Of a DNA stretch of 64,000 nt, positions 27,984-59,824 are shown piece after piece (position 1 is the first letter of the stretch; every line of letters begins with the position of its first letter). The notes below the pieces were generated by a model. The model was given only the letters and a program-made list of their open reading frames with translations, was not told the origin of the DNA and ran no database searches. Both the position numbers and the translations under genes were made by a program. The stretch spans positions 115,849 to 179,848 of the forward strand of contig CAYFHS010000001.1 in the NCBI GenBank assembly GCA_964342815.1, given 5' to 3'. This DNA comes from an uncultured archaeon (lineage in GTDB: Archaea > Thermoplasmatota > Penumbrarchaeia > JASLWR01).

Positions 27984-28160
27984 TCCATCATTCCTGTTTC
28001 TTAATTATGTTACTTACATTGAGTGAAACTTGGGGCATTATGCAACCGATCAGTTTTCTAAATCATAGCACCAATTCATTAATAACTATTTTTATAAAAA
28101 TTACGGGTTTGTGCGACTTTACCATGGAATAGCGCAAGCATCCTTTCTATCGGATTTTGC

Positions 28161-32339: not shown

Positions 32340-32447
32340 TTCCTTCCATCTCCAAGTAAAGTCAGGAACGTTTTGACTGACTTGTTGGTAAAGACGAGCT
32401 TGCATGGGTCGGCTTTACACAAGGACCTTAAAACAACGTACAACCTG

Positions 32448-32465
32448 TATTTATAGCTTATCCGA
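32448..32465 (-). promoter_or_regulatory. Candidate BRE-TATA upstream of P2
   Basis: Minus strand TCGGATAAGCTATAAATA. Confidence 0.5.
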
Positions 32466-32492
32466 AGATGGTACGAGTAGTTTTCTTCAAGT

Positions 32493-36737: not shown

Positions 36738-36794
36738 CGAAGCACTCCACAAAAAATGAAGGAATGTTGTCTGTAAAAAACAACGTGCTAACAC

Positions 36795-36812
36795 TATATA
36801 TATATTATCCGA
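36795..36812 (-). promoter_or_regulatory. Candidate BRE-TATA upstream of P3
   Basis: Minus strand TCGGATAATATATATA. Confidence 0.5.
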
Positions 36813-36884
36813 ACTTGGTATCCAATACGGCTTAATCCCTACTAAAAAAAATTACCCGCCGAACATTTACACAAGGCCTTATTC

Positions 36885-41168: not shown

Positions 41169-41477
41169 ACATTCACCGTGATCAGCTCAGTGGGCGGTAA
41201 TATTACCGATGACGGAATTGGATTTAACATTTGGAGATTACTCAGCGGGAAGCAAAAACATAGAGCCTTCCGGTATATATAATATTGGAATGAAATGGAT
41301 GACAAAAAAAAGTTTGTCTGAGGACCGGATGGGAGAATTTAGAAAAAGGTTAAGTAGCAAATTATAGGATTGGAGATAATCCGATTAGAAATTAACAAAA
41401 AATATTTATTATTTATTTAAGGCCCTTCAACCCAAATCAATATAACATATGATACCTATATGTTACTCTGTGATATA

Positions 41478-41777
41478 ATGTCTACGCAAGTTAACATCAG
41501 ATTGGACGACAATTTATTAAGTGAAATAGACGCGATTACAAAGGTTCTTCATGTTTCCCGAACTGAATGGTTAAGGATGAAAATTGCTTTTGCAGTAAAA
41601 GATGATACTTTAAGATTTTCTGAAGCAATTGCAATGGAATATGCAAAAGGACACCTTAGTGATATGGAATTAAGAGAAATGCTGGGTTCCGATGCCGATG
41701 AGGTAATATACATCGTAAAACATATGAAAAGAGGCAAGAATTATATCGAAGATATGGTGGACAAGGGACTTTTATGA
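41478..41777 (+). CDS. Ribbon-helix-helix antitoxin-like protein (VapB/UPF0175-like)
   Basis: TQVNIRLDDNLLSEIDAITKVLHVSRTEWLR fits the RHH pattern; ATGA overlap with the downstream PIN gene; the track starts at 41460. Confidence 0.8.
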   Translation: MSTQVNIRLDDNLLSEIDAITKVLHVSRTEWLRMKIAFAVKDDTLRFSEAIAMEYAKGHLSDMELREMLGSDADEVIYIVKHMKRGKNYIEDMVDKGLL

Positions 41778-42241
41778 AACCGTCGCTTGCTTTCGATACT
41801 TCGGCCCTTGTTTCTCTGGGCCATACGGAATTGATAGAATTGATCTTGGATAACTATAATGTCATCATTTCCGATAGGATATTAAAAGAATTGGCTGAGA
41901 TCGGAGGAAAGAACGACAAAGATGCTAAAGCGGCCAATAAATGGTTGGAATACTCCGACAAGATGGAATTGAAAGATGCAAAGAAAAGCATAATTGGTGA
42001 GGAAGAACTATTGGAAATAGCTCAACGCGAAAAATTATCAATGGTGACCGATGACGTAAAAGCAACTAAAAAATTCGAGGATCAAATAGATTGGATATTT
42101 AGTGTCCATGTAGTTTTCCTTCTCTATTATAAAGGTATAATTACAAAAGAAAGAGCAATTTTTTCCATAGAAAAGATGATAAGTGAGAGATCTTGGAAGA
42201 ATAATATTATCTCCTTGACGGCAAAGTTACTTTTTCAATAA
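41774..42241 (+). CDS. PIN-domain ribonuclease (VapC-like, DUF3368-like)
   Basis: AFDTSALV, ILKEL, GEEELLEIA, VTDD acidic tetrad; translationally coupled to the RHH gene. Confidence 0.85.
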   Translation: MKPSLAFDTSALVSLGHTELIELILDNYNVIISDRILKELAEIGGKNDKDAKAANKWLEYSDKMELKDAKKSIIGEEELLEIAQREKLSMVTDDVKATKKFEDQIDWIFSVHVVFLLYYKGIITKERAIFSIEKMISERSWKNNIISLTAKLLFQ

Positions 42242-42375
42242 ACTATCGTGATATCTGAAGTAAGTTTTTGAAAAATTCATTTTATTTATTACTCACAATG
42301 GGTGCAGCACAGAATAACGCACTTATTCGGTACTCGCCTCAATGATATAATGGACAAATCCACCGAGAATCACTT

Positions 42376-45300: not shown

Positions 45301-46776
45301 CCGGACATCGAAGAACTTGTCCTCGGGATAGACATTCTCCGAACCCTCGTAGGCAACGGTCATATTGCTGAAAAGAAGTTTTTCTTCGCCCCTTATCCAG
45401 TCTCCCCGCTCAACGATCCCCTGATATTCACCCTCTACCACGGGCTCTCCCACCAGTTCAAGGTCATTTTCCACGCGAAATAGATAGGGGAACCGGTCAA
45501 GGTTGAATCTCCCTGAACTTCCGGTTGTATTTATATAGCAGTCTATTAGGTCCTCGTGCGGGAAGGCAAAGTCGATTACAAAAGAGAAATTAATCCACCA
45601 TTTCTCCACATTGTTGTTTGAAAACGCCGAATCGCCCAGAAGTTCCAGATGATTTCCGAGGTCATTAGCCTTGTAAAAGTTTTTTTGCGTCCCATTGAAT
45701 CCCAGGGTTATGTTGGTATTGTTGTAATCTATAAATATCCTCAGGTCGGAAAGATCGTCAAGGGATTCGAAGGTGGTGACGTTGATACCCAGTTTGTAGG
45801 AGCGGTAACCGGCGTAACAGACAGCGCTTTTATTATCCGAATCCAACAGGTTGACCGATTCCGGCTCCGGGGGACGGGCGGTGGGAAAATTATCCTTGAC
45901 CATTTCGATATATTTTACCATCTGAAGAAGCTCATTGTTTCCGCGGTTGCCCCAGTCGAAGGTCATCATGTTCATCATGACGTAACCTTCGTCCAGAACA
46001 TATTCTATGAAAGCCGGTTTATTGTTCGCATTGGACCAGAGAATGTCATTCCACTTGTTGGTTTCGGGATTTGTCCCGAGGTTCGCCCCGCCTGAGTCCG
46101 CGAGGTTACCCGGCGCGGTGACGTATCCATGGCAGGTGGTGCCCCAGGACCGAAAGTTATTGGCATTCAGTCCATTTCCCCCAAAACCCTGACCTGTTAT
46201 CCATTCATGGTCATTGTCTGAAACGATGGGATTTTCGTCGGTAGTACCTGATTGCTGGTAGCTGCCAAAGTTCGAACCGCCCGGCCCCGTCACATCCTGG
46301 CCGGAATTGTGCGCGGCATTTGCTACGAAAATACCTCCTTTCCGCACATATTTCTCGATGATACCCCCGTTCATCATTGTCTTTAACGATCCGTCTGCAA
46401 TATCGCCCTGACAGCCTGTGTAAATCGCATAATAGCGGTCGAAAAGGTACTCTGCATTGCGCTGGGCCGTGACACCGGCTTGCTCAACGTCAAAAGGTAT
46501 TCCCTGGTTCGTGAGATGACCTTGGAGAGTGTTGGTGCGATCCCCGCCATTCGAGCAGACCAGCACCTTGTTTGCAGCTCTACTTTTTCCGTGGACGCCT
46601 ATATCTGAGTCTTTACCTGATGCAGCGGGATATCGTATGTCACCATCATATGAGACCGAAGCTGTTATCAAACGGTCGTTCCGGTCCTCGGAGGATTGGT
46701 CAACAAATGTCGGGATTATTAAAAGCAGACATATTATCAAAGGAAGACTGCGAATGATTGAATTTAATAATTTCAT
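42376..46776 (-). CDS. Array paralog P5: surface protein with class I GATase/ThuA-like head
   Basis: Head KVLVCSNG...YYAIYTG...IEKYVRKGGIFVAN...DHEWITG...LDEGYVMMNMMTFDW; stalk from CYAGY (Cys 45819). Confidence 0.88.
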   Translation of the reverse strand: MKLLNSIIRSLPLIICLLLIIPTFVDQSSEDRNDRLITASVSYDGDIRYPAASGKDSDIGVHGKSRAANKVLVCSNGGDRTNTLQGHLTNQGIPFDVEQAGVTAQRNAEYLFDRYYAIYTGCQGDIADGSLKTMMNGGIIEKYVRKGGIFVANAAHNSGQDVTGPGGSNFGSYQQSGTTDENPIVSDNDHEWITGQGFGGNGLNANNFRSWGTTCHGYVTAPGNLADSGGANLGTNPETNKWNDILWSNANNKPAFIEYVLDEGYVMMNMMTFDWGNRGNNELLQMVKYIEMVKDNFPTARPPEPESVNLLDSDNKSAVCYAGYRSYKLGINVTTFESLDDLSDLRIFIDYNNTNITLGFNGTQKNFYKANDLGNHLELLGDSAFSNNNVEKWWINFSFVIDFAFPHEDLIDCYINTTGSSGRFNLDRFPYLFRVENDLELVGEPVVEGEYQGIVERGDWIRGEEKLLFSNMTVAYEGSENVYPEDKFFDVRISDRKGNEWWDYESSGGKVSIEAVSGNVTNPDEEYTISIENIPENGICAANLDYPLKIDADAPLSPVNLLCHADDFKDKETGNTDKNEVFVTWDPVEDPASGLRGYYYSHDDNSTSENGSFTNKTEVEIDELPEGVVPVYVWCVDNVGNIGDSEVSEILVDLTVPYYSNYAPADGIWHNHTDIDCSVDIYDGEGSGVDGATVEYSISNNGVHGFDFWIPAWLPVQNEPMSPGVNYVFLEGEENFIKWRAKDISGNGFVESSPVNIKIDTTPIKFANVISPETEWYSQKSITTKITVSDLGSGVNQESFEARISSSGPNDFGHWIPIVPESISGSDVDGYEITVTFTYEEGADNFIMFRGTDLVGNPYTLSDKFNLKIDISPVYFGIFTPDENDYSNSQTVECFIEIMDDSSGVNPETVEYSIASGAGGDNKSFGPWKKVVNVVTGNPTQVLLDVEFQWGPDNYIRWRADDMMGTGHNISKSYRVWVNSRPEAIISSPDQASYFRYDREIMFDALDSYDDDGDNLSFYWSSNVTANKSLGSLPLFGGRLAPGKHIITLFVYDGHGYNESTDVNIEVGSRLHYETDSDGDGFSDGFERESGTDPYNSDTTPEGEPDIVPPETAGILGESSSMLLIILGCIFILILLILIIFFIVRKKKKSKEEKVDAPVKAGPKQLPYGQRPHSGQFTPPGPQMYGGGMQAPMTGMPGSQPQHLMLAPGPGFVNQSQFPTASPGQTFQGPPALNTGFTGESTYLLPSFQTDQGMQELTRLALPPAPEPGPAPVVFSGLDVPLPTPLADPMNMPAADISFPPSPAQPSPPPIPGQDIAPGEPAAPPAGTGDLSELDSYLAYLEDMTKTPEPAPPTTPSATPPAIPPTTPPDTPPATPPTTPPDTPPVTPPVTPPDTPPVTPPVTPPVTPPVTPPTAPPIPVETPAPSTNEMTMQCHSCGNNYTAEIIEYPALVTCPVCQTQGVINSA
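42535..42725 (-). repeat. Intragenic 12-bp tandem repeat encoding (T)PP(V/D/A/T)T in the P5 tail
   Basis: About 15 units of ggtggtgt(a/g)act / ggcggtgtatct on the + strand. Confidence 0.9.
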
Positions 46777-46931
46777 TCAATTCAACCTCTTTTCAGGCCA
46801 ATTGGCGAACTTTGTCGCCCGCTATGATGTCGCTAGAAGGGGTAATTTGATGACAAATCCATGGTCTTATGAATAGATAATGTTTTCGTTTGAAAAAGAT
46901 AATACTCGCACATATCTAAATCGATTCCCGA

Positions 46932-49900
46932 TCATTGTGATTCTATGATGCCCTGCGTCTTGCAGACCGGGCAGGTGACCAGAGCCGGGTACTGGGATAT
47001 TTCTGCATTGTAGTTATTTCCGCATGAGTGGCACTGCATGGTTATTTCGTTAGTGACAGGCGCGGGGATCCCTTCATGAGCTTGTAGTGAGGCTGGCTGA
47101 AATGGCTCCGGTGGTGTGGGTAAAGTATCCAACGCGCCTATGGCCTGAACTGCCTCAGGTTGTAATGACAGATCCGGATTGTGTATCGAAGGCGCAGCGG
47201 CCGGATTCATTATTGCTTGCCCGCCCGCAGGATCCGGTCCGGGCGGAAGGGCCATTAGCTCGAGGTTCTGAGCCCCCTCTTCTGTAGAGAATAATGGTAG
47301 GGAATATGCGGTACTGCCTGAGGGACCCGGCCCTGCAGGACTGTAGGGGGGAAGTTGTGGAGAATAGTCATTTTGCGGTATTTGAGCTTGCGGGGCTTGA
47401 CCGGGAACGGGCGGGCCGTATTGGTTTGTGTTAGTAATACCCGCCCCCGGAGGGAAAACTGCCCCGGGGGCGCCGGCTCCCTGCATCCCCCATGCTGCTC
47501 CCTGGTATTGTGCCATTTCCCCGTATCCCTGGGGTAAGCCCGTGGGATGATATTGACCCTGGGGATAAGGATGCTGTGGAGGTCCGTATTGTGATTGCAT
47601 CGGGATGGGCATACCCGATGGTGAAATTTGTTCTGAATCCTTTTTCTTCCTTTTCCTTATAATGAACAAGATCACCAGAATGACAATTATCAGCAGTAAG
47701 ATACAACCTACAATCACAAACAACAGGGAAGAGTCTTCACCCAGTATTCCTCCGCGATCCTGATCAACGATATCCGGCTTACCTCCCGGGAAAACCGCTC
47801 TGTTATACGGGTCGGACCCTTTTTCACGCTCCAAGCCGTCGGAAAATCCATCCCCGTCGCTGTCCTTTCCATAAACAGCCGGGCCGCCCACCTCAATTCT
47901 GATTTTCTCACTCTCGTTGTAGCCGTGACCGTCTGACACAAATAAGGTTATAGTATGTTTTCCAGGTTCTAATTGAAAACTGAAATAGGCTCCTGAACCA
48001 ATTTGACGATTCGCACTGACATTTGAGGTCCAGTAATGGGTGAGGTTGTCCCCATCCTCGTCGGAGGAATGGGTGGCATCGAAGGTAATTTCGCCATCGA
48101 ACCTGAAATATGATCCGTCATCGGGAGACGATATCACAACTTTTGGTATGGAATTCACCCATACCCTGTAAGGCATCGACTCATTGAAACCGGTCCCCGT
48201 AAGATCGTCCGCACGCCATTTTATATAATTATCGTCACCCCATTCGAATTCCAGTTTCATAAGAACCTGGGTGGGATTTCCCGTAACCACATTTACTGCG
48301 TTTTTCCAGGGGTCGAAACTTTCATTGTCGGTCCCTCCGTATCCTATGGAATATTGAACCGTTGACGGATTCACACCCGAACCGTCATCTAATATCTGGA
48401 TGAAACATTCCACAGTTCTATCGTCAGCATATTCCTCCTCATCCGGTTTAAAGGTCCCGAAATATACCGGGGAACTATCTATTTTCAGATTGAATTTATC
48501 GGATAGTGTATATGGAGTTCCAACCATGTCGGTTCCGCGAAACATGATATAGTTGTCCTTTCCTTCCGCATAGCTGAAAGTTACCGTTATTTCGTATTGA
48601 CCTTCAACTGGTTCATGTATGTTCTCGGCATCTATGGATATCCATTTACCGAAATCATTTGGACCTGCAGTGGATATTCTTGCCTCCAGGCTTTCGAGGT
48701 CCACCCCGCTTCCGGTGTCACTTACGGTTATTGTTGTGCTAATTGTATTTTGCGCGTACCATTCAATCTGCGGAGTTATCTCATCATTGAAACTAACAGG
48801 GGTGATATCCACCTTTATGTTTACGGGCGGAGATTCGGAAAATCCGTTCTCTGAAATATCCTTGGCACGCCATTTTATGTAATTTTCTTCACCCTCCGGA
48901 AAGATGTATTTAACACTGGGGATTATGGGATTTCCTTCTTCCGGCACCCACGCGGGCATCCAGAAATTGAATCCGTGCGTTCCGCTTGCAGAGATCGAGT
49001 ATTCGATGGTGCTTCCGTCGACCCCTGATCCCGGTCCATCGAATATCTCAATTGAGCAGTCGATATCAGTATGATTGTGCCATGAACCATCCAGGGGTGT
49101 ATGATTTGAAAATACAGGCGGAGAAAGATCAACCAGTATTCCCGAAGAAGCCGCATCCCCAATATTCCCCACGTTATCGACGCACCAAACGTAAATTTCC
49201 GCGTATCCCTCTTCAAGCTCATCTATCTTAACTTCAGTAACATTGGTGAATGTCCCGTCAGTGGTTCCCGAATTGTCCGATTGTGAATAATAATATCCAA
49301 GAAGGCCCGAGGCCGGGTCCTCCACCGCATCCCAGGTTACGTACATCTCGGGCTGCTTGGTATTCCCGGTCTCCTTGTCCTTGAATCCTCCTGCACGGCA
49401 TTTGAGGTTTACGGGAAACAGGGGCGGTTCAGCATCGAGCTTAACGGGAAAGCTCAGATTGGTCATGCATATGCCCGAGCCGGGGATGTCCTCGATGGTG
49501 ATGAGATATTCCTCGTCCGGGTCGGTGGCGTAGCGCGTCCTTATTGGTAAGGAAATCCCCTCGACACTGGAACTGTTGTCCCACCATGTGTTTCCAAACC
49601 TATCAGTGATCCTGACATTGAAGAATTCGTCATCCGGATACAGCATAGGCGAACCCGCATAAACCACGGAAAGGTTGCTGACCGTGATGTTCTGACCTCC
49701 CTTTACCCAGTCCCCCGGATCGATTTTGCCCTGTTCTTCTCCGGAAAAAAACGGAGTGCCTGCAAATTCAAAATCGTTCTCCACCCTAAACAGCCATGGG
49801 AACCTGTCCATAGTATGTTCATTGGCCACCGAGCTGGTTTTGGTCAAGCAATCTATGGGTCTTTCGTGGGGAAATGAAAAATTGAATATCACAGAAAAAT

Positions 49901-50987
49901 TCACCCATATTCGATCTACCCCGTCATCCGCCAGTGTACAGTTATCTATGAGAAGATTGACGTCGTTCTTTTCGTCCTGTAACTTGAAGAATTCGTTTCT
50001 GCTCCAGTTATAACCCAGGGTGGCATTTGTCGTATTGTAATCAAGATAGACCTTCAGTTCGGAAACGTGATTCAGGTTTTCATTAGTAGTGAGATTGACG
50101 CTGAAGGTGTAGGGTTTATATCTGGTATAGCAGACATTTTCCTCACCCTTCGGAACCACGAGTGCGGCGGAGTCCGTATAGACCAGCAGATCCACTGCGG
50201 AGTAGCGGTACCAGGTGTTTCTGCTGAACTCGCATGCCTGCAGCTCCCTTCCGGTCCACGCAAGACCGTAATTCCCGCTGTTGTAGGGTGGATCGATGGT
50301 GCGCAGGTGCTGGCCGTTCATATCATACACCAGCAGCTCGTGATCGCTGTCCGATACGATGAGCATATTGTTGAAATAGAGCATACCAAAAGCGTTTGAG
50401 AAACGGAGACTGGGGTTGATGGTTCCGAGCTTGGCGCCGGTATTCTTGTCCAGCTTCAGTATTGGGCCGTAATTGAAAAGGCCATACACGTATTTATCAT
50501 CGCAGGTGATCCCTCTCGCCTGGCTTCCGTCGTTATACGTCCTGGCCCAGAGCTGGTTCCCGTTCCTATCGAACTTGTAGAAGGTTCTGCTGTTATCCCC
50601 TACATAGAGATTGCCATCGGAATCGGTTCCGAGAGCGATGGATCTTGACACGGTATTTCTCGTACCCACCAGCCTACCGGCATCGTTGTAACGGTGGATG
50701 GTGCTGCTTGACCACGACTGCTTGACCCAATACTCTTTGAAGTATCTCATATAGACCGAGCCGTATTGAGTGGTTCCATCCAGGTTTCTCGTACCCAGAT
50801 ATTGAAAATCCTCGGCCCTTGTCTCGTTCCCATAATTATTCCCGGATCCTCCATCGATTTCATCCGGTTCAGCCTCTTGAATATTATTTATACTGGCTTT
50901 CCCGATATTGAAAGAAAAGATCAGGCTGAACAGTGATATGGTGATCAGCAATACCGGCAAAATATCACTTAAGCGGGTACGTTTCAT
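46932..50987 (-). CDS. Array paralog P6: surface protein with NHL-like beta-propeller head
   Basis: Start MKRTR (50987). Blades ALGTDSDGNLYVGD, RGITCDDKYVYG, FGMLYFNNMLIVSD, YGLAWTGRELQ; stalk from CYTRY (Cys 50132); shorter tail. Confidence 0.88.
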   Translation of the reverse strand: MKRTRLSDILPVLLITISLFSLIFSFNIGKASINNIQEAEPDEIDGGSGNNYGNETRAEDFQYLGTRNLDGTTQYGSVYMRYFKEYWVKQSWSSSTIHRYNDAGRLVGTRNTVSRSIALGTDSDGNLYVGDNSRTFYKFDRNGNQLWARTYNDGSQARGITCDDKYVYGLFNYGPILKLDKNTGAKLGTINPSLRFSNAFGMLYFNNMLIVSDSDHELLVYDMNGQHLRTIDPPYNSGNYGLAWTGRELQACEFSRNTWYRYSAVDLLVYTDSAALVVPKGEENVCYTRYKPYTFSVNLTTNENLNHVSELKVYLDYNTTNATLGYNWSRNEFFKLQDEKNDVNLLIDNCTLADDGVDRIWVNFSVIFNFSFPHERPIDCLTKTSSVANEHTMDRFPWLFRVENDFEFAGTPFFSGEEQGKIDPGDWVKGGQNITVSNLSVVYAGSPMLYPDDEFFNVRITDRFGNTWWDNSSSVEGISLPIRTRYATDPDEEYLITIEDIPGSGICMTNLSFPVKLDAEPPLFPVNLKCRAGGFKDKETGNTKQPEMYVTWDAVEDPASGLLGYYYSQSDNSGTTDGTFTNVTEVKIDELEEGYAEIYVWCVDNVGNIGDAASSGILVDLSPPVFSNHTPLDGSWHNHTDIDCSIEIFDGPGSGVDGSTIEYSISASGTHGFNFWMPAWVPEEGNPIIPSVKYIFPEGEENYIKWRAKDISENGFSESPPVNIKVDITPVSFNDEITPQIEWYAQNTISTTITVSDTGSGVDLESLEARISTAGPNDFGKWISIDAENIHEPVEGQYEITVTFSYAEGKDNYIMFRGTDMVGTPYTLSDKFNLKIDSSPVYFGTFKPDEEEYADDRTVECFIQILDDGSGVNPSTVQYSIGYGGTDNESFDPWKNAVNVVTGNPTQVLMKLEFEWGDDNYIKWRADDLTGTGFNESMPYRVWVNSIPKVVISSPDDGSYFRFDGEITFDATHSSDEDGDNLTHYWTSNVSANRQIGSGAYFSFQLEPGKHTITLFVSDGHGYNESEKIRIEVGGPAVYGKDSDGDGFSDGLEREKGSDPYNRAVFPGGKPDIVDQDRGGILGEDSSLLFVIVGCILLLIIVILVILFIIRKRKKKDSEQISPSGMPIPMQSQYGPPQHPYPQGQYHPTGLPQGYGEMAQYQGAAWGMQGAGAPGAVFPPGAGITNTNQYGPPVPGQAPQAQIPQNDYSPQLPPYSPAGPGPSGSTAYSLPLFSTEEGAQNLELMALPPGPDPAGGQAIMNPAAAPSIHNPDLSLQPEAVQAIGALDTLPTPPEPFQPASLQAHEGIPAPVTNEITMQCHSCGNNYNAEISQYPALVTCPVCKTQGIIESQ

Positions 50988-51086
50988 ATTACACACTCAT
51001 TTTTAGGGTATATTCATTAATATCTAAATGTAAAAACGCAAAAGCAATAATATTTACACTATTTATTATTAGTTATCTTAAATAAA

Positions 51087-54000
51087 TTACATAGATTCGA
51101 TCATTCCCTGAGTCTGACAGACCGGGCAGGTGACCAGAGCTGGAAGCTGCACTATCTCGGCTGTATAATTGTTACTGCAAGAGTGACACTGTATCTGCTG
51201 GAATCCACTTCGATTACCGCCACTGTTTGGTGGCGGAAGAGAAGGGGAAGCAGATTCCTGCGTTTCCGAAGATGAAGCCAACAGACCCGTCTGTTGGCGA
51301 TTCATGGTTATCTCATTTGCAGCCTGGGCCGGAGTTTCCATCGGAACGGGAGGCTCCCGGATATCGGATTCCTCTTTTAAACTACCTATTGTGGCGAGAT
51401 AAGCGTCAAGTTCCCCGAGATCACCTGTATTGGCATTCGTAGGATCAATAATGGATGATGGACCTGTGGCTGCTGGGGCCGGAGGTGAAATTAGCTGTTG
51501 GCCGAAAGGAAACTGCTGTTCATCTACACTGGGCGATATGGTTTCAGGTTGTATCGGATTGATATTTGTTTGCGCTTCAGCGTGTATGGGTCCGGGAGGT
51601 AATGCCATCCTGTTGAGATTCTGCGAGCCTTGCTCGGTGGAGAACTGTGGAAGTGAGTAAGTGGTGCTGCCTGCGGCACCCGTACCAAGCTGACCGTATG
51701 GGATCTGCGGTTGTAATTGTAATGTGGGAGTTTGTCCGGGGGCAGCCGTCCCGAATTGCTGGGAGGCCCCCATCCCCGATCCCGAATTCATCATCATGGT
51801 AGGGGTATTCAGTCCTTGCATAGCCATGACCGCCGCTTGGTATTGCGCCATTTCTCCATAGCCCTGCTGCCCGGCTTCAGACATGTATTGACCCTGACCA
51901 TAGGGATGCTGGGATGGGCCGTATTGTGATTGTAGCGGGGGAGACTGGACGCTGGGTTCTTCGTCTTTTTTTCTTTTTCTCACTACAAAGAATATAACCA
52001 AAATCAGGATGATCAACAGTAATAATCCCCCAAGAACTACAAAAAGCAGTGAAGAACCTTCACTCAATATTCCCAATTTCTCCTGGACGACAATATCCGG
52101 CTCACCTTCCGGGGAAACCGCCCCGTTATGCGGGTCGGTACCTTTTTCGCGCTCCAACCCGTCCGAGAATCCGTCCCCGTCGCTGTCCCGCTCATAAGCT
52201 GCTTTAGAACCCACTTCGATTTTAACCTTCGCGCTCTCATTGTAACCATTCCCGTCTGACACGAATACAGTTATTGTATGTTTTCCAGGGGCCAGCACGG
52301 CATATTTAACACTGCCGACCCCCAGGAGCTGGTTGGCGCTGACATTGGATGTCCAGTAATAGGTGAGATTGTCTCCATCCTCGTCGGATGAATCGGAAGC
52401 ATCGAATGTAATTTCGCCGTCATAGCGGTAATACGACCCAGCTTCGGGAGATGAAATTTCTGCATCCGGCTTCGAATTCACCCATACCCTGTAAGGCAGT
52501 GACACATTGTACCCCGTTCCCATGACATCGTTGGCACGCCAACGTATGAAATTATCGGACCCCCATTCGAACTCCAACTCCATTAGAACCTGCGTGGGAT
52601 TCCCCTCTACAACGTTAACTGCCTTCTTCCACGGCCCAAAACTTTCATTGCCGCCGCCCCCTTTGGCGACAGAATATTCGACGGTTTGGGGATCTACCCC
52701 CGATCCGTCGTCCAGTATCTGTATGAAGCATTCCACGGACTTTCTGTCCGCAAAATCATTCTCGTCCGGTGTGAAATCGCCGAAATACACCGGGGAAGTA
52801 TCGATTTTCAGATTGAATTTGTCTGACGAGGTAAAGGGATTTCCCACCATGTCCGTGCCTCTGAACATGATGTAATTATCCTTCCCTTCCGGGTAAGTGA
52901 AAGTGACGGCTATTTCATAACCGTCGTCACCGAATTTAGTTATATTTTCCCGGTCAATTTGCATCCATGTGCTGAAATCATTTGGGCCCGACGTGGATAT
53001 CCTTGTTTCGAAGCTTTGCGGATCCAAGCCGCTTCCGGTATCGCTAACCGTTATCTTTGTTGTTATTGAATGGTGATCATACCAATCCTTCGGGGGTGAT
53101 ATCGCATCGGCAAAAATGACGGGAATCGTGTCGATCTTTATGTTTATGGAAGGCGATTCCGCAAAGCCGTTCCCCGAAACGTCCTTTACCCTCCATTTTA
53201 TGTAATTTTCTTCACTCTCCTCAAAGATGTATTTTACGCTGGCCACCGTCGGTTCGTTCTCTAGAGGCACCCATGCAGGTAGCCAGAAATCAAAACCGTG
53301 TACTCCATCATTGGACACGGAGTATTCTATTGTAGTGACGTCGACTCCCGAACCAGTGCCGTCATATATTTCCACCATGCATTCTATGTCCGTGTGATTG
53401 CGCCATGAACCGTCCAGGGGAGTATGGTTCGAAAAGACCGGCAGCGTAAGGTCCACCAGTATGCCCGAATTTCCTGCCTCTCCAATGTTTCCCACATTAT
53501 CGATGCTCCAAACGTAAATTTCCGCAAATCCTTCACCCAGCTCATCGATCTTTACTTCTGTTTCATTGGTGAAAGTCCCATTTGTGGTTCCCGAATTGTC
53601 CAAATGAGAATAATAATAACCCAATAGACCCGAAGCCGGGTCCTCCACTTCGTCCCAAGTGACGTACATCTCGGCCTGGTTGGTATTCTCCGTCTCTTTG
53701 TCCTTGAAACCCCCGGCCCGACACTTCAGATTAACGGGAAACAGGGGTGCTTCTGCATCGATCTTTACCGGGAAGCTTAGATTTGTCATGCAAATACCGG
53801 AACCGGGGATGTTCTCGATGGTTATGAGATATTCCTCAGCCGGGTCGGTGACCTTTTGCGTATTAATGGAAATTGAAATCCCTTCCACGCTGGATGAATT
53901 GTCCCACCACGTTTTTCCGGTCCTGTCCATGATCCTGACATTGAAGAATTCATCATCCGGGTACCGCATTGGAGACCCTGCATATATCACTGTAATATTG

Positions 54001-55418
54001 CTGACGGTGATTGCCTGATTTCCCTTTACCCATGATCCGGATTCGATTTTACCCTGTTCGTCCCCGAAAAAGAATGGTGTGCCTTTAAACTCGAAATCGT
54101 TCTCGACACGACAAATATGAGGGAATCTCTTCATCCGTGATTTGCCGTTGCTGGCTCTTATCTTGACAAAACAGTCAATCTTCTTCTCATGTGGAAAAGT
54201 AAAATTAAATCTGATGGAGAAATTTACAAACCATTTATCATCACCGTTATTTGAAAAAGCACTGTCTTTGACCAGAAGCTGCACATAGCCGTTTTCGTCC
54301 CCCAATTTGAAGAATTTCCTTTGCGTCCAGTTGAATCCCAGGGTGGCATTTGTTGTATTATAATCGAGCCATACCTCCATTTCAGAGGCATCGTCAAGGG
54401 TTTTGGTGGTGGTGATATTCACGCTGAGATTATATGAGCTGTACTCTGCATAACATACTTTTCCGTCGTCTATATCACCTTTCAATGCCGCAGATTCCAC
54501 GTTCGTGATCCTTACCCCCCCAATTTCGGGATAATGATAAACGTTTCCCTGATTCCAGACGAGAAGACTGTTGTCCTCTGCATTGTAAGAGGTATGGGCG
54601 ATGTATCCTCCGGCACCGAGACTGTTTGAGTACGAGCTACGGGAGGAAGTGCTGGTATCGTATTTGTAATTGAAGGTTGCGCTGTTGTATGAATTTCCCC
54701 AGTACAATACACCGCCGACCATGAATGCCCAGCCCACGTTTCCCTTGTTCCTGCCAGTATTCCAGGTTTTTAAAACGTTCAGATTTTCATCCAGTTGGCT
54801 CAATTGCATGGGTTGTGAGGTCGATGTCGCCCAGCAGACGTAGAGACCGGTCTCGTCACTCATAAGATTGATATCAGTGTAGCCGCCCCAATTGAAATGG
54901 GCCCGGTTGTGAAATCCCGCGTTTGGCAGTGCCCTCGATAGTACTTGAGCCATGTCCGTTGTCCTGCATTTTACCAGTGTGTTGCTGTTGTACTGCGCAT
55001 AGTAGAGATGGTTGTTGTAAATTGTGTGATAGGTTCCTTCGGATTGCCGTGGGAGATTAAATTGTCGAACACCGTTATTATTGATGAAGTTGGCCAGCGA
55101 AGTGTATCGATATACCGTTGACTCCCGATAGCTGTTATGATAGAACACATGTCCGTTCGATTCGTCCACATCTATAAAACCATAAGTGCTGAAACCACCC
55201 CTGATCTGCCCGAAATTATTTGATAATTGTCTCATCTCTTCATCGCTGCGTGTTTTTTTCACGCTGTTTTCCGCGGTCATTTCTCTTCTGACATTTATGG
55301 AAGTTTTCAGGGAGGGCTCCTCAATTGCGTCTGTAAGGTAGCTTTGGAAAGCCGTACTTATCATCACAACAAATATTGGGATGATTATTATCTTAGTCAA
55401 TTTCCGATTCTTTTTCAT
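51087..55418 (-). CDS. Array paralog P7: surface protein with olfactomedin-like head
   Basis: LPNAGFHNRAHFNWGGYTDINLMSDETGLYVCWAT...LSQLDENLNVLKTWNT...AFMVGGVLY...YKYDT...SYNAEDNSLLVWNQG matches olfactomedin motifs in order; stalk from CYAEY (Cys 54455); carries the 108-bp insert. Confidence 0.9.
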   Translation of the reverse strand: MKKNRKLTKIIIIPIFVVMISTAFQSYLTDAIEEPSLKTSINVRREMTAENSVKKTRSDEEMRQLSNNFGQIRGGFSTYGFIDVDESNGHVFYHNSYRESTVYRYTSLANFINNNGVRQFNLPRQSEGTYHTIYNNHLYYAQYNSNTLVKCRTTDMAQVLSRALPNAGFHNRAHFNWGGYTDINLMSDETGLYVCWATSTSQPMQLSQLDENLNVLKTWNTGRNKGNVGWAFMVGGVLYWGNSYNSATFNYKYDTSTSSRSSYSNSLGAGGYIAHTSYNAEDNSLLVWNQGNVYHYPEIGGVRITNVESAALKGDIDDGKVCYAEYSSYNLSVNITTTKTLDDASEMEVWLDYNTTNATLGFNWTQRKFFKLGDENGYVQLLVKDSAFSNNGDDKWFVNFSIRFNFTFPHEKKIDCFVKIRASNGKSRMKRFPHICRVENDFEFKGTPFFFGDEQGKIESGSWVKGNQAITVSNITVIYAGSPMRYPDDEFFNVRIMDRTGKTWWDNSSSVEGISISINTQKVTDPAEEYLITIENIPGSGICMTNLSFPVKIDAEAPLFPVNLKCRAGGFKDKETENTNQAEMYVTWDEVEDPASGLLGYYYSHLDNSGTTNGTFTNETEVKIDELGEGFAEIYVWSIDNVGNIGEAGNSGILVDLTLPVFSNHTPLDGSWRNHTDIECMVEIYDGTGSGVDVTTIEYSVSNDGVHGFDFWLPAWVPLENEPTVASVKYIFEESEENYIKWRVKDVSGNGFAESPSINIKIDTIPVIFADAISPPKDWYDHHSITTKITVSDTGSGLDPQSFETRISTSGPNDFSTWMQIDRENITKFGDDGYEIAVTFTYPEGKDNYIMFRGTDMVGNPFTSSDKFNLKIDTSPVYFGDFTPDENDFADRKSVECFIQILDDGSGVDPQTVEYSVAKGGGGNESFGPWKKAVNVVEGNPTQVLMELEFEWGSDNFIRWRANDVMGTGYNVSLPYRVWVNSKPDAEISSPEAGSYYRYDGEITFDASDSSDEDGDNLTYYWTSNVSANQLLGVGSVKYAVLAPGKHTITVFVSDGNGYNESAKVKIEVGSKAAYERDSDGDGFSDGLEREKGTDPHNGAVSPEGEPDIVVQEKLGILSEGSSLLFVVLGGLLLLIILILVIFFVVRKRKKDEEPSVQSPPLQSQYGPSQHPYGQGQYMSEAGQQGYGEMAQYQAAVMAMQGLNTPTMMMNSGSGMGASQQFGTAAPGQTPTLQLQPQIPYGQLGTGAAGSTTYSLPQFSTEQGSQNLNRMALPPGPIHAEAQTNINPIQPETISPSVDEQQFPFGQQLISPPAPAATGPSSIIDPTNANTGDLGELDAYLATIGSLKEESDIREPPVPMETPAQAANEITMNRQQTGLLASSSETQESASPSLPPPNSGGNRSGFQQIQCHSCSNNYTAEIVQLPALVTCPVCQTQGMIESM
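51195..51302. repeat. 108-bp in-frame palindromic insert, copy in P7
   Basis: Identical by eye to 55619-55726. Confidence 0.85.
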
Positions 55419-55487
55419 ATTTTAACTCCTCGGTTCCGGAAGAGAAATACTTGTCGAGATGATGGGGTGAAAACAATGAAATTCCAC

Positions 55488-55504
55488 TATTAATAGTTAT
55501 CCGG
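55488..55504 (-). promoter_or_regulatory. Candidate BRE-TATA upstream of P7
   Basis: Minus strand CCGGATAACTATTAATA. Confidence 0.45.
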
Positions 55505-55510
55505 AATATC

Positions 55511-58500
55511 TCATATGGATTCGATCATTCCCTGGGTTTGGCAGACCGGGCAGGTTACCAGAGCTGGAAGCTGCACTATCTCGGCTGTATAATTGTTTCC
55601 GCAAGAGTGACACTGCATCTGCTGGAATCCACTTCGATTACCGCCACTGTTTGGTGGCGGAAGAGAAGGGGAAGCAGATTCCTGCGTTTCCGAAGATGAA
55701 GCCAACAGACCCGTCTGTTGGCGATTCATGGTTATCTCGCTTGCTGCTTGGGCCGGTGTCTCCATGGGAACGGGAGGTTTGGGGGGCTCTGAGCCCGGTG
55801 ATTCAGTCATACCGCCCAATGCGGCCAAGTATGCATCCAGTTCTGCCAGGTCGCCGATATTATCTGAGGAGGGCCCGGTTGTCTCCATAGCAGGAGATGC
55901 TGCTGTTTCAGCCACCGTATCTGGCGGCGGAGACGGTAACGGTTCAGCTGGAAATGTCGAATCCACTCTCGTTGAAGATATTGGATCTGGCGGCGTTGGT
56001 AAAGGCGTTCCCGGCGATCCTGCATCCGGCAGGATGGGGGGTTGCAGAGGCATGTCAGGAACAGAAGGTGGATAAGCAATCCCCAAATCCGCTGCAACGG
56101 GTGCTGGAGGTGAGGCGGGGCCTGGAGGAAGCGCCATTCTTTGGAGATCCTGCAGTCCCTGATCGGTTTGGAAGGAAGGAAGTAAATAGCCAGGATCCGC
56201 TGGGATACCCGGGCCAATCCCCGGAGGACCCTGCTGGGATGGAAATGCTTGAAATGCGGGACCACCAGGAACAACGTGGGGCCCGGGAGGCAGCATCAAT
56301 TGCGGCGATTGTATCCCCTGCATTCCAAATCCCGCTCGATGGCCAGGGTCGGGACCTGAATATCCCTGCGAGACAGGAGTCTGGTACTGTCCCTGCTGGT
56401 AAGGGTGAGGACTAGGTCCTGGGTACGTCTGCTGCGTGGGACCCGGAGCGGAGGGGGCGGGTACCTTCTTTTCGGATTTTTTCTTTTTCCTTAAAATGAT
56501 GAAAATGATCAGTATCACTAACACGAGAAGGAAGATACAGGCTAGGATTATGAAAAGTAACGAAGATCCACCGCTCAGTATCCCGCCGGGTTCCGTGATC
56601 ACTATGTCGGGTTCGCCTTCCGGGATTACGGCGCCGTTGTGTGGATCGGTTCCGGACTCCCGTTCCAGACCATCCGAGAAACCATCCTCGTCGCTATCCT
56701 TTTCGTATTCGACCCGGCTGATCACCTCGATTTTTACTTTCTCACTCTCGTTGTATCCGTGGCCATCAGAAACGAATAAACTGATTGTATGTTTTCCCGG
56801 GGCTAATCGAACAATGAACTTGGCATCACGTCCGACAGAGCGGTTCAAACTGACATTGCTAGACCAGTAAAAGCTGAGGTTGTCCCCATCCTCGTCGGAG
56901 GACCCCGAAGCATCAAAGGCAATTTCGTCATCGTAACTGAAATATGACCCTTGAGCTGGTGATGTAATAATCGCTTCAGGTTTTGAATTCACCCATACCC
57001 GATAAGGGATCGATATGTTGTGTCCGGTCCCCATCATATCGTCGGCCCGCCAGCGGATGAAATTGGCGGCCCCCCAGTCGAATTCCAGCTCCATAAGAAC
57101 CTGTGTGGGATTGCCTTCTACCACATTTACTCCCTTGTTCCAGGGCCCAAAATTTTCATTGTCACCCCCGTTCGCAATTGAATATTCCACTGAAGAAGGG
57201 TTCACCCCAGAGCCGTCATCGAATATCTGAATGAAACATTCCACCATCTTGTCGTCCGCATAATCGTTCTCTAAAGGCGTGAAAATCCCGAAATATACTG
57301 GCGAGGTGTCGATTTTCAGATTGAATTTATCAGATAATGTTATGGGGTTGCCAACCAGGTCCGTTCCCCTGAACATGATGAAGTTATCCTTTCCCTCCGC
57401 ATACCTGAATGTGACTGTAAGTTCGTGGCTGCCGCCATCGTTTTCACTGATGTTTTCGGCGTCTATTGACATCCACCGGCCGAAATCATTAGGGCCGGAA
57501 ACAGAAATTCTTGTTTCGATGCTGTCCGGCTTCACTCCACTTCCGATATCGCTAACCAATATCGTTGTTGAAATTTCTGCATAATCATACCATTCCATCT
57601 GAGGCGATATCTCCGCTGCGAAATTGATGGGAGTTGTATCAACCTTCAGGTTAACAGATGACGATTCGACAAATCCATTTCCTGTTATATCCTTTGAACG
57701 CCATTTTATATAATTATCTTCGCCCTCATGAAATATATATTTTGTACTTGGCACCATGGGTTCATTATTCTCGGGTATCCACGCAGGTATCCAGTAATCG
57801 AAACCATGCACTCCGTTATCCGACACTGCATACTCGATGGAGCTGCCGTCGACTCCCGATCCCGCCCCATCAAAGATCTCGATGGAGCAATCTATGTCCG
57901 TCTGATTGTGCCATGAACCATCCATGGGGGTATGGTTCGAAAAAACTGGCGGTGAAAGGTCCACAAGTATGCCGGAGCTTGCGGATTCGCCGATATTCCC
58001 GACCATGTCAATGCACCATACGTAGATCGAGGCAAATCCTTCGTGAAGGTTCTTCAATTCCACCTCGGTGACATTCAGAAAGGTACCGTTGATACTTCCC
58101 GAATTATCTGCTTGTGAATAATAATATCCCTTGAGTCCGGATGCGGGATCCTCTACGGCATCCCAGGTTACGAACATACCGGGCTGATTCGTATGCTCGG
58201 TCTCCTTATCCTTGAAATCATCGGCATGACACTTTAGGTTGACGGGATAGAGAGGAGGGTCCGCATCAATTCGTACGGGGAAGGTCAGATTTGTCATGCA
58301 AATGCCGGTTCCGGGTATATTCTCGATGGTGATATAATATTCTTCTTCCAGGTCGCTAACGTTTCTCGAAGTCAGATTTATTTCGACGCTCTCGTTACTG
58401 CTTTCATTGTCCCACCAAGCTTGCCCCGTTTTATCGGTAATCTTGACATCGAAATAGTCGTCCTTGGGGTAGATATCAACGGCTCCCGCATATCGTACCA

Positions 58501-59824
58501 TAAGATTCGCGACGTTAATATTCTCATTACCCCGGATCCAGTCGTTTTTCTCCAATGCTCCCTGAAATTCACCGGTTAGATCTGGAATACCCACCAGCTC
58601 CATGTCATTCTCAACCTTGAACAGATTGGGGAAGCGGTCGGTTCTTACAATTCCCGTGATAGCAGCGGTGCTAATGAAACAGTCCACCTGGTCTTCGTGG
58701 GGAAAGGTGAAATTGAAAATTACGGAGAAATTGAGCCACCACCTTTCGACACTGTCGGTGGTAACAGTGGAATCGTCAACAAGAAATTGAACGTGTCCGT
58801 CAGTGTCCTGATATTTGTAGAAACGTTTCTGCGTCCAGTTATAGCAAAGAGTAGCATTTGTAGTGTTATAATCAAGGAAAACCTTTACCTCGGAGACCTC
58901 GGTTAGTTCCTTCGCGGATGTGATATTAACACTGAGAGTGTACGGGCGGTGCCGGGCATAGCATATCTTGTTCTCGTCACCATGTCCTAAAATGGCGGCG
59001 TTATCGGCATATGCCGTAAGATCCACTTCCAGCCAACATGCCACAGGCATCCCACCCTGGTTTTGGCCCACAGTGAGAAGAATATCGGAGCCCTGCGGAA
59101 TGGTAGTTATCTCTCCGTGGGACGCGGAACTGCCTGAGAACGAGGGACGGTTCATGTTTCTCACCATGGGGTGATTGACCGCCACCACGAAATTATGGCT
59201 GTTACCATTTCCATTGGTCCTTACACCGAAAGGGCCGGGAACGCCCCTGGACCAACGGCGTTGATAATTCGTACCGAACATGTCGATCAGTATTCCCCCG
59301 TTATTCACATAGTCCTCCATGGTTGAAACCATGGACTCCATCTTGTTCATATGCTGGTTCGGCTGGTATTCGGATATTATGATCATACGAAAAACATTCG
59401 GGTCAAAATCATTCACATTGACCGCACCGGCACTTTTCTGTGTAAATTGTATCCCCCTGGTGTTCATCTCCCGGCGCCAGCCGTCAGACCAACCCTGATG
59501 ATCCCATATTATGAGTATGGGCCCCGAATCCGCATGGGTTGGCCAGAGCCAATCGAATGTATTCATGATGAAGAAACGGGAATGTTGGCCGTTCCCGTAA
59601 CCGTAACTTGCTATGGTCCCAGTGACAAAATAAATTCCCTTATCACCGGCGCTCCTTTTATTTGATGTTATGGCCAATTGCCTCGAAGGGTTCTTTGGCT
59701 TCACCTCTATTTCCTGGTTTTCTTGGAGGGCCATGTAGGAGCACAAGGACAAATATCCGGTTCCCATGATACAGAAAACAACAGCAATCGACACCACCAC
59801 GGGCATTATATTCGATCTTCCCAT
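55511..59824 (-). CDS. Array paralog P8: surface protein with GATase/ThuA-like head (apparently circularly permuted)
   Basis: Head FRMIIISE...MEDYVNNGGILIDM...NHPMVRN; stalk from CYARH (Cys 58963); GGAGA RBS; carries the 108-bp insert. Confidence 0.88.
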   Translation of the reverse strand: MGRSNIMPVVVSIAVVFCIMGTGYLSLCSYMALQENQEIEVKPKNPSRQLAITSNKRSAGDKGIYFVTGTIASYGYGNGQHSRFFIMNTFDWLWPTHADSGPILIIWDHQGWSDGWRREMNTRGIQFTQKSAGAVNVNDFDPNVFRMIIISEYQPNQHMNKMESMVSTMEDYVNNGGILIDMFGTNYQRRWSRGVPGPFGVRTNGNGNSHNFVVAVNHPMVRNMNRPSFSGSSASHGEITTIPQGSDILLTVGQNQGGMPVACWLEVDLTAYADNAAILGHGDENKICYARHRPYTLSVNITSAKELTEVSEVKVFLDYNTTNATLCYNWTQKRFYKYQDTDGHVQFLVDDSTVTTDSVERWWLNFSVIFNFTFPHEDQVDCFISTAAITGIVRTDRFPNLFKVENDMELVGIPDLTGEFQGALEKNDWIRGNENINVANLMVRYAGAVDIYPKDDYFDVKITDKTGQAWWDNESSNESVEINLTSRNVSDLEEEYYITIENIPGTGICMTNLTFPVRIDADPPLYPVNLKCHADDFKDKETEHTNQPGMFVTWDAVEDPASGLKGYYYSQADNSGSINGTFLNVTEVELKNLHEGFASIYVWCIDMVGNIGESASSGILVDLSPPVFSNHTPMDGSWHNQTDIDCSIEIFDGAGSGVDGSSIEYAVSDNGVHGFDYWIPAWIPENNEPMVPSTKYIFHEGEDNYIKWRSKDITGNGFVESSSVNLKVDTTPINFAAEISPQMEWYDYAEISTTILVSDIGSGVKPDSIETRISVSGPNDFGRWMSIDAENISENDGGSHELTVTFRYAEGKDNFIMFRGTDLVGNPITLSDKFNLKIDTSPVYFGIFTPLENDYADDKMVECFIQIFDDGSGVNPSSVEYSIANGGDNENFGPWNKGVNVVEGNPTQVLMELEFDWGAANFIRWRADDMMGTGHNISIPYRVWVNSKPEAIITSPAQGSYFSYDDEIAFDASGSSDEDGDNLSFYWSSNVSLNRSVGRDAKFIVRLAPGKHTISLFVSDGHGYNESEKVKIEVISRVEYEKDSDEDGFSDGLERESGTDPHNGAVIPEGEPDIVITEPGGILSGGSSLLFIILACIFLLVLVILIIFIILRKKKKSEKKVPAPSAPGPTQQTYPGPSPHPYQQGQYQTPVSQGYSGPDPGHRAGFGMQGIQSPQLMLPPGPHVVPGGPAFQAFPSQQGPPGIGPGIPADPGYLLPSFQTDQGLQDLQRMALPPGPASPPAPVAADLGIAYPPSVPDMPLQPPILPDAGSPGTPLPTPPDPISSTRVDSTFPAEPLPSPPPDTVAETAASPAMETTGPSSDNIGDLAELDAYLAALGGMTESPGSEPPKPPVPMETPAQAASEITMNRQQTGLLASSSETQESASPSLPPPNSGGNRSGFQQMQCHSCGNNYTAEIVQLPALVTCPVCQTQGMIESI
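55619..55726. repeat. 108-bp in-frame palindromic insert, copy in P8
   Basis: Flanked by ATG codons at 55616-55618 and 55727-55729. Confidence 0.85.

Follow-up and report, generated by a model that had tools for sequence, protein, structure and literature searches.

An olfactomedin propeller as the head of a predicted surface protein in a marine Thermoplasmatota archaeon

The gene P0001 of an uncultured archaeon encodes a predicted type I membrane surface protein of 1443 amino acids (aa) that carries an olfactomedin (OLF) domain near its N-terminus. The gene occupies positions 51087..55418 on the reverse strand (−) of a 64,000-nucleotide stretch of DNA (GenBank assembly GCA_964342815.1, contig CAYFHS010000001.1, positions 115,849 to 179,848), here called the window. 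The domain is confirmed as a genuine OLF five-bladed beta-propeller, by sequence and by a predicted fold. The best explanation as a whole, given a probability of about 0.7, is that the propeller is the tip of a receptor, that it was transferred from bacteria, and that it has been kept under purifying selection. The results on which this draws are the identity of the domain, its predicted fold, the topology signals of the protein, the loss of calcium ligands, a modular array of paralogs, the distribution of the domain, and the selection acting on it.

Identity, host, and anatomy of the OLF protein

The Pfam OLF profile (PF02191) matches residues 86-297, equal to window positions 54528-55163 (−), with 140.5 bits and an E value of 9.3e-41. 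The gathering cut-off of the profile is 23.9 bits, and profile positions 26-243 of 246 are matched. A six-frame search of the genome with PF02191 recovers the same domain at 145.6 bits. When all sequences of the Protein Data Bank (PDB) were searched with phmmer, olfactomedin domains alone were returned, with E values of 1.8e-29 for noelin, ~1e-27 for myocilin, ~3e-24 for latrophilin-3, and 2e-17 for gliomedin.

The predicted structure agrees. An AlphaFold2 model of residues 60-310, made from a 76-sequence alignment, has a mean predicted local distance difference test score (pLDDT) of 95 and a predicted template modeling score (pTM) of 0.92. Among PDB structures, the 50 best Foldseek matches are all OLF domains, with template modeling (TM) scores of 0.74-0.88. 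The top match is mouse Olfm1 (6qhj; TM-score 0.88, root-mean-square deviation 2.1 Å, 247 columns), and OLF clusters of the ESM Atlas superpose on the model at TM-scores of 0.86-0.91. Together, the E values, the predicted fold, and the PDB matches put the resemblance to olfactomedin far beyond chance.

The family core motifs, namely the WGG...D block, G-T, and AF..G.LY, are present. Thirteen columns of the 76-sequence alignment are at least 90% conserved, and the archaeal OLF has the consensus residue at each of them (L63, G69, T70, W118, G120, D123, D129, L133, L154, K166, F173, G177, and Y180, numbered in the 60-310 fragment). Animal olfactomedins have an N-terminal coiled coil and a C-terminal OLF, and here the OLF sits N-terminally. 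No animal olfactomedin-associated Pfam family, Noelin-1 included, matched the protein. The archaeal protein has the OLF domain in common with animal olfactomedins, not the protein family.

An earlier reading of this DNA, made from its sequence only, had placed an OLF-like domain of an archaeal surface protein at 54528-55193, which corresponds to residues 76-297 of the 1443-aa open reading frame (ORF). All five peptide strings that it quoted are located in the translation of 51087-55418 (−). The two checks it proposed for the domain, HMMER against PF02191 and AlphaFold with Foldseek, both came out in its favor with the values given above. The archaeal half of the claim is supported by the host evidence that follows.

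The window lies on contig C1, of ~343 kb (342,653 bp in the cluster record), of a 4.35-Mb, 89%-complete metagenome-assembled genome (MAG). An archaeal-type alanyl-tRNA synthetase (AlaRS) is encoded in the same window (TIGR03683, 1155 bits against a cut-off of 745). Orthologs with the OLF-plus-stalk layout are 1396-1466 aa long, are 80-89% identical in OLF, and come from 'Thermoplasmatota archaeon ETNP2_MAG_1', a second uncultured archaeon, and the genomes G001 and G003. The same architecture, with a conserved neighboring paralog, is seen in G001, G003, L003, and L004. The OLF part has a GC content of 0.475 and a third-position GC content (GC3) of 0.54, the same values as the stalk. Near-identical DNA is present in marine or seawater metagenomes from several studies between 2014 and 2023. 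The junction of head and stalk (~54518) is bridged by contig X3 (54294-54575), which comes from a different sample of the same study. Contamination or chimeric assembly is ruled out by the contig, the AlaRS, the orthologs, the GC and GC3 values, and the bridging contig. The contig is therefore sound on the point that the sequence-only reading wished to see confirmed: the stalk is collinear with its paralogs, and the same fusion occurs in independent assemblies and runs.

P0001, taken from the ORF list and its translation, begins with a signal peptide or hydrophobic leader (residues 1-30; 55329..55418, −). This consists of a basic N-terminus followed by a hydrophobic stretch, with Kyte-Doolittle hydropathy above 1.8 in the windows starting at residues 6-11. 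Residues 31-59 are a variable linker, and the 55 residues between leader and propeller are 45-62% identical between orthologs. The OLF propeller head spans residues 60-305 (54504..55241, −), as drawn from Pfam, PDB phmmer, AlphaFold2, Foldseek, and the ratio of nonsynonymous to synonymous substitution rates (dN/dS). A conserved stalk follows at residues 306-1000 (52419..54503, −), delimited by sliding identity to seven tandem paralogs. Next is a PKD/Big-like immunoglobulin (Ig) domain at residues 1001-1067 (52218..52418, −), where PKD_4, PKD, and Big_9 match with E values of 7e-5 to 2e-4, slightly below the Pfam cut-offs.

Close to the membrane, at residues 1078-1098 (52125..52187, −), is a TSP3_bac calcium-binding motif (DSDGDGFSDG...; PF18884, 29.9 bits, cut-off 25). 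The transmembrane helix comprises residues 1123-1146 (51981..52052, −), with a hydropathy peak of up to 3.0, and is followed by the basic cluster RKRKK. By composition, residues 1147-1400 (51219..51980, −) form a cytoplasmic low-complexity tail rich in P, Q, S, and G. The C-terminus (51090..51218, −) is a CxxC...CxxC zinc ribbon with cysteines C1411, C1414, C1431, and C1434; its last 30 alignment columns are 77-93% identical among paralogs. The leader, the single helix, and the RKRKK cluster place the head outside the cell, as a prediction from these topology signals.

The OLF gene stands seventh in an array of eight paralogs of like orientation (23670..59824, −), recognized from the ORF list, Pfam, and alignment. 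P0001 possesses the collinear stalk, the DxDxDG motif, the single transmembrane helix, and the CxxC...CxxC tail of an uncatalogued archaeal surface-receptor family, and TSP3_bac is detected in 8/8 paralogs. Up to about residue 300, the paralogs are less than 30% identical to the OLF gene and effectively unalignable. From residue 301 onward, identity is at first 36-46% and then 60-90% along the stalk. One of the other heads is a LamG_3 domain, and no Pfam family matched the remaining heads of the array. The earlier proposal that OLF is used here as an interchangeable tip is upheld by this change in identity and by the nature of the other heads.

OLF, LamG, and g46932-type heads recur in other genera, and gene order is partly conserved. 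Other genera share these heads, and the first segment of the stalk has diverged in the meantime, so that on these comparisons the head exchange is an old event. The distribution of N-X-S/T sequons follows the same boundary. The OLF head has none, and residues 306-1123 have 20; across all eight paralogs, heads of ~250 aa have 0-1 each and stalks of ~817 aa have 19-21 each. This pattern suggests a glycan-coated stalk with a bare tip, where the glycosylation is predicted from the sequons alone. Heads nearly free of sequons are consistent with an exposed, unshielded binding surface.

Calcium site, distribution, and origin

Four columns of the OLF domain hold the residues of the central metal site and the disulfide in animals. 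HMMER and multiple alignments place N184 (54867..54869, −) in the column of the Ca/Na ligand Asp356 of Olfm1 and W230 (54729..54731, −) in that of the Ca ligand Glu404. S277 (54588..54590, −) occupies the column of the Ca/Na ligand Asp453, and G235 (54714-54716, −) that of the disulfide residue Cys409. By the motif register, the columns of N184, W230, S277, and G235 correspond to D380, N428, D478, and C433 of myocilin. In Olfm1, the Ca2+/Na+ ligands are Asp356, Glu404, and Asp453, and the disulfide joins Cys227 and Cys409 (PMC6857237). The archaeal head lacks the Asp, Glu/Asn, Asp set of the central Ca2+/Na+ site. It also lacks the intradomain disulfide, as G235 stands at the Cys409 column and the Pfam match begins past the position of the N-terminal Cys. 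Alignment to the published Olfm1 ligands bears out the earlier reading of these positions as N, W, and S. All three archaeal orthologs carry N/W/G/S at the four columns, and the aromatic residue W230, at the second ligand position, immediately precedes the Ala-Phe of a core strand.

The OLF of gliomedin is reported to have no internal Ca2+ ion, no N-to-C disulfide, and no cation-pi loop lock, and to be ~20 °C more stable (PMC4488277). With gliomedin as a metal-free and disulfide-free precedent, loss of the Ca site defines a subclass and does not exclude a domain from the OLF family. By its residues at these columns, the archaeal head is assigned to such a metal-free subclass. The form of this subclass with an aromatic second ligand position appears, in the sequences aligned, only outside animals.

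Within Thermoplasmatota, the domain is confined to one family. PF02191 was found in 4/401 genomes sampled across the phylum, and all four belong to family f1 (4/4, three genera). The other 397 genomes, from ~50 families and including 260 that are at least 90% complete, gave 0 matches to PF02191. Each f1 genome has a second, very divergent OLF-headed paralog, and in G002 the divergent copy is the only one. In the genome of P0001, this paralog is a 1460-aa frame outside the window, with its OLF at C1:338598-339161 (−; locus L002:1435-2154). It scores 27-30 bits with Pfam OLF and E ~1e-16 with a custom profile. Its AlphaFold2 model has a pLDDT of 88, and its 50 top PDB matches are all OLF (50/50, TM-score ~0.7). 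Its Ca columns read G/T/G/S.

Beyond this phylum, 1.84 billion cluster representatives were searched exhaustively with HMMER; 517 clusters matched at E <= 1e-3, of which 220 reached E <= 1e-10. In the tree, non-animal clades hold ~50 of the 150 best clusters. Bacterial gene contexts were confirmed for five non-animal OLF proteins: P0018, P0013, P0007, P0101, and P0023. P0018 combines OLF, HYR, and CHU_C domains and is a type IX secretion cargo gene adjoining PorP/SprF. P0013 has MopE repeats and OLF and adjoins a LysR regulator. P0007 has Stig1 repeats and OLF and adjoins phosphotransferase system (PTS) and RapZ genes; P0008 has the same pair of features, Stig1 repeats and OLF. P0101 is from an NCBI bacterial assembly and adjoins an extracytoplasmic function (ECF) sigma factor, and in the phylum of its genome the custom profile matched 3/301 genomes. 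P0023 lies in a compact prokaryotic gene context.

On these sequence searches, OLF in prokaryotes is rare and patchy, and it is not unique to this archaeon. The survey of prokaryotic matches that the sequence-only reading called for did find other prokaryotic OLFs, which lowers the novelty of the archaeal one. That reading had also described OLF propellers as characterized almost entirely from animals. The structural work found agrees with this; by sequence the family is not animal-specific, given the non-animal OLFs and the five in bacterial contexts.

The searches differ in what they can count. The PF02191 genome search (E <= 0.001) missed the OLF of the bacterial genome G401, which scores 45.7 bits in hmmscan and was recovered by custom profile A2. 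The metagenomic protein P0084 has no Pfam match at all. From these two cases, Pfam counts underestimate the divergent OLF clades. A word-indexed near search returned one fragment, and one with a prokaryotic profile brought up, beside the archaeal orthologs, just three NHL/SBBP-repeat proteins; neither is usable as a census. ESM Atlas clusters of at least 50 members with OLF are all eukaryotic, which reflects the cluster-size cut-off and not prokaryotic absence.

Further OLF-like proteins were met along the way. A 159-member Pseudomonadota cluster of the ESM Atlas, annotated only as Cadherin_4 and Big_9, has an OLF-like propeller (TM-score 0.84) without Pfam OLF annotation. Related metagenomic proteins of 300 aa, P0084 and P0125, bear the IMG name 'autoaggregation protein RapA/B/C'. 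The amoebozoan Pelomyxa schiedti encodes P0025 (KAH3745893.1; relatives P0026 and P0138), in which a TRIM-like RING and B-box are joined to OLF. TRIM-like proteins usually have NHL or SPRY domains at this position. P0025 groups with the Ca-free bacterial clade A12 and is a case of non-animal eukaryotic use of OLF, probably intracellular.

An unrooted maximum likelihood tree (LG+C20+F+G4 with posterior mean site frequencies, PMSF) was built from 79 OLF domains. The 23 animal rows form one clade (99/99); animal identity was confirmed by name for 11/23 rows, with at least one from each of most subclades. The animal clade stands in a polytomy with a 22-row metagenomic group, 'bac22' (98/88), of which three rows are verified in bacterial gene contexts. 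Across a split of 100/97 from the animals, bac22, and a small clade of uncertain origin stand both archaeal clades together with A12 and B12, which are bacterial.

The chemistry of the metal site coincides with this split, giving a Ca-site class and a class without the triad, to which Pelomyxa and the small clade of uncertain origin belong. On one side, animals (23/23 rows) and bac22 (22/22) have Asp at position 1, mostly N or E at position 2, (Cys), and mostly Asp at the last position. On the other, the Ca triad is missing from the archaeal clades, A12, and B12, and the second position is W, F, or Y in A12, B12, and the strong archaeal clade. The nearest non-archaeal relatives of the archaeal OLF are domains of A12, at 34-42% identity, among them P0008 and P0023, the latter with an N/W/G/S pattern.

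These placements argue clearly, from sequence, that the archaeal OLF is not a recent import from animals, and the tree with animal sequences that the sequence-only reading proposed puts the archaeal OLFs outside the single animal clade. In an approximately unbiased (AU) test, a topology with the two archaeal OLF types as one clade is not rejected (p 0.64), and the constrained tree is 5 log units better. One acquisition followed by duplication is therefore sufficient. Midpoint rooting was disregarded, since it places the root on the divergent archaeal paralog, whose branch is very long.

With the animals as a single clade, the unrooted tree is compatible with transfer in either direction between animals and bacteria. 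The greater depth of the non-animal clades favors a prokaryotic origin of OLF, short of proof. The earlier proposal of prokaryotic ancestry or gene transfer therefore stands in part. Transfer into the lineage fits the presence of OLF in 4/4 f1 genomes and 0/397 others; prokaryotic ancestry of the animal OLF was not established.

A broader scenario, tentative and rather doubtful, is that OLF began in prokaryotes as a propeller for surface adhesion and had two subclasses of ancient date. The metal-free aromatic type would be that of the archaea, several bacterial clades, and Pelomyxa, and the other type would be Ca-binding and disulfide-bearing. Animals would have gained OLF in one transfer of the Ca type from bacteria into their stem lineage, from which the OLF of myocilin, noelins, latrophilin, gliomedin, and amassin would derive. 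The archaeal array may in addition be a transmembrane receptor repertoire that signals via its zinc ribbon, a prokaryotic analogue of adhesion receptors.

Proposed function and competing explanations

Animal OLF domains are protein- or ligand-binding modules, e.g., in the pairs latrophilin-FLRT and noelin-AMPA receptor. By analogy, the archaeal propeller would cap a type I membrane protein at the end far from the membrane and would bind a specific extracellular macromolecule, either protein or glycan, probably via a face of the propeller. The Ig-like stalk of ~700 aa, which has most of the 20 sequons and is predicted to be glycosylated, would project the head tens of nanometers from the membrane. 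The conserved zinc-ribbon tail may link occupancy or anchoring to a cytoplasmic partner. The seven tandem paralogs, with other heads on the same stalk, would together provide a repertoire of binding specificities.

The OLF module would have entered the ancestor of family f1 by horizontal transfer, with bacteria as the presumed donor and the archaeal lineage as the presumed recipient. Duplication would then have given a well-conserved and a very divergent copy, with vertical inheritance and strong purifying selection afterwards. The tip is most likely a ligand-binding module acquired in this way. Taken separately, a binding or recognition role of the head is favored with some reserve, on analogy with animal OLFs. 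A role in structure or variation is unlikely, and a catalytic role has very little chance.

Selection on the head is strong. Compared with the ortholog of the same genus, the OLF part has a dN of 0.071, a dS of 0.83, and a dN/dS of 0.085. Identity to two orthologs is 89% and 80% in OLF, 75% and 56% in the stalk, and 44% and 29% in the tail, so that OLF is the best-conserved part of the protein. The pattern suits a head whose task is specific and conserved, not a fast-evolving decoy.

The same figures bear on the best-surviving rival, to which a low probability is given. Here the array would be made of structural cell-coat proteins whose exposed heads are swapped for surface variation, as in evasion of viruses or grazers, and OLF would be just one stable fold. 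It would account for eight tandem paralogs with unrelated heads on a single scaffold, for heavy predicted stalk glycosylation that resembles archaeal envelope proteins, and for an array order that varies between close relatives. However, between genera no part of the protein is better conserved than the OLF head, and the dN/dS of the head is the opposite of that of a diversifying decoy. OLF, LamG, and g46932-type heads moreover persist across genera, and the conserved cytoplasmic zinc ribbon suggests an intracellular partner.

Two further rivals are both highly improbable. If the propeller were an enzyme, like the five-bladed glutamine cyclotransferases, this would agree with a bacterial glutamine cyclotransferase cluster among its structural neighbors (TM-score 0.64) and with the Peptidase_C25 surface protein that adjoins the array. 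However, the cyclase match is far weaker than those to OLF (0.64 vs 0.84-0.91), the close matches in sequence and structure are all OLF, and no Pfam enzyme family matched the protein. No catalysis by OLF domains is known.

The other is an ancient archaeal OLF that was inherited vertically and lost nearly everywhere else. It can point to the two deeply divergent OLF paralogs of family f1, both present in three genera. The nearest relatives of the archaeal domain are bacterial, though, and the absence of PF02191 from 397 other Thermoplasmatota genomes of ~50 families would require very many independent losses.

A recent animal origin, whether by mis-binned or chimeric animal DNA or by recent transfer from animal to archaeon, gains something from the fact that characterized OLFs were previously all animal and that the best named matches are animal proteins, yet it can practically be set aside: the gene runs unbroken into an archaeal-type stalk, its contig of ~343 kb carries an archaeal AlaRS, the fusion recurs in independent assemblies and runs, GC and GC3 are host-like, identity to any animal OLF is just 26-42%, and the single animal clade (99/99) lies across the 100/97 split from the archaeal one.

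Several points weigh against the preferred reading, that of a receptor tip gained from bacteria and kept by selection. Animal OLF ligands are diverse, so no specific ligand is predicted. Ligand binding is argued by analogy, the fold comes from a predicted structure, the glycosylation comes from sequons, and the signal peptide was called visually and by hydropathy. At 0.6 changes per site the branch of the archaeal OLFs is long, its placement among the Ca-free clades is weakly fixed, and the tree is unrooted. Expression is represented by one 199-nt metatranscriptome contig (54609-54804, 100% identical), which is possibly carried-over DNA; no RNA cover was found elsewhere on the gene in that same run.

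Related systems, significance, and neighboring features

Olfm1, or noelin (PDB 6qhj, 6qm3, 4xat), is the best match in sequence (E 1.8e-29) and structure, at 29% identity. Both have the five-bladed propeller, matched from end to end, and have in common the core motifs WGG.. D, G-T, AF..G.LY, and YN. They differ at the metal site and disulfide, where Asp356, Glu404, Asp453, and Cys409 of Olfm1 correspond to N, W, S, and G (PMC6857237). The OLF of Olfm1 is C-terminal, behind a coiled coil in a secreted tetramer, whereas the archaeal one sits at the N-terminus, borne on an Ig-like stalk that is anchored in the membrane.

Gliomedin (PDB 4d77, 4xav, 5yby) is a similarly stripped-down OLF (PMC4488277) and matches the archaeal model at TM-scores of 0.85-0.88. 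In contrast to P0001, it is a type II membrane and collagen protein from the Schwann cells of vertebrates. Among the matches with solved structures it ranks last in sequence similarity (E 2e-17), and it was left out of the 79-domain tree. Latrophilin (ADGRL) has an OLF propeller on a membrane-receptor ectodomain that binds the partner FLRT on another surface (PDB 5cmn, 5ftt). It is a seven-helix G protein-coupled receptor (GPCR) with GAIN autoproteolysis, unlike the archaeal protein with its single transmembrane helix and zinc-ribbon tail. Homology is limited to the OLF domain, and the latrophilin OLF retains the Ca site.

The bacterial metagenomic OLF proteins (P0018, P0013, P0007, P0008, P0101) resemble P0001 as secreted or surface multidomain proteins with OLF at one end. 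Clade A12 (P0008, P0023) is closest, being Ca-free with an aromatic second ligand position. The bacterial proteins use bacterial secretion and anchoring modules instead of the archaeal scaffold of stalk, helix, and zinc ribbon. The bac22 group differs further, retaining the animal-type Asp/Asn/Asp site and cysteine and adjoining the animals on the tree.

In the literature, no description of bacterial or archaeal OLF domains was found, with most subscription journals outside the search. InterPro contains a number of bacterial entries for OLF. The novelty is limited, since the archaeal OLF protein is already labeled by automated Pfam annotation and public databases already include OLF sequences from bacteria. 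What is new is the archaeal host, the receptor-like architecture, the putative metal-free non-animal subclass with an aromatic second ligand, and the several deep prokaryotic clades.

OLF domains are of medical interest, as myocilin is involved in glaucoma, latrophilin-3 in attention deficit hyperactivity disorder (ADHD), and noelin acts at AMPA receptors. The biochemical function and the origin of OLF are still poorly understood, and the structural work found is all on animal proteins. An OLF without a Ca site, disulfide, or sequon should suit production in Escherichia coli and could serve as a comparator for folding, stability, and aggregation. The OLF family is not animal-specific, and with the animal clade beside a Ca-binding metagenomic clade, the origin of an 'animal' adhesion domain becomes testable. 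The modular array offers a tractable system for how uncultured marine Thermoplasmatota recognize particles, prey, or partners.

Several neighbors of the OLF gene are also of note. Adjoining the array at 18964-23529 (−) is a gene for a 1521-aa protein with a Peptidase_C25 domain (gingipain-type, E 4e-59), after which come NPCBM_assoc and Ig-like domains. The protein resembles a surface protease on a different scaffold. At 60670-63999 (+), and continuing beyond the end of the window, is a protein of >1110 aa with a Reelin subrepeat-B domain (E 6e-15). An 884-aa protein encoded at 2627-5281 (−) possesses VIT-VWA and C-terminal winged helix-turn-helix (wHTH) domains of the HVO_0163 type. The Reelin subrepeat-B and VIT-VWA domains are better known in eukaryotes.

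At their 3' ends, the OLF gene and the neighbor upstream of it share a 290-nt direct repeat of 92% identity (51064-51353 and 55488-55777). An apparent rearrangement, seen as a 'goes back 4424' joint in two DNA runs, was rejected, as it is explained by this paralog repeat. Within the repeat, in the part of the OLF gene that encodes the tail rich in P, Q, S, and G, is a 108-nt in-frame element (51195-51302) with two strong hairpins (−45 kcal/mol, z = −5.2). Gene conversion, or an in-frame insert that is mobile, may account for the repeat and hairpin element.

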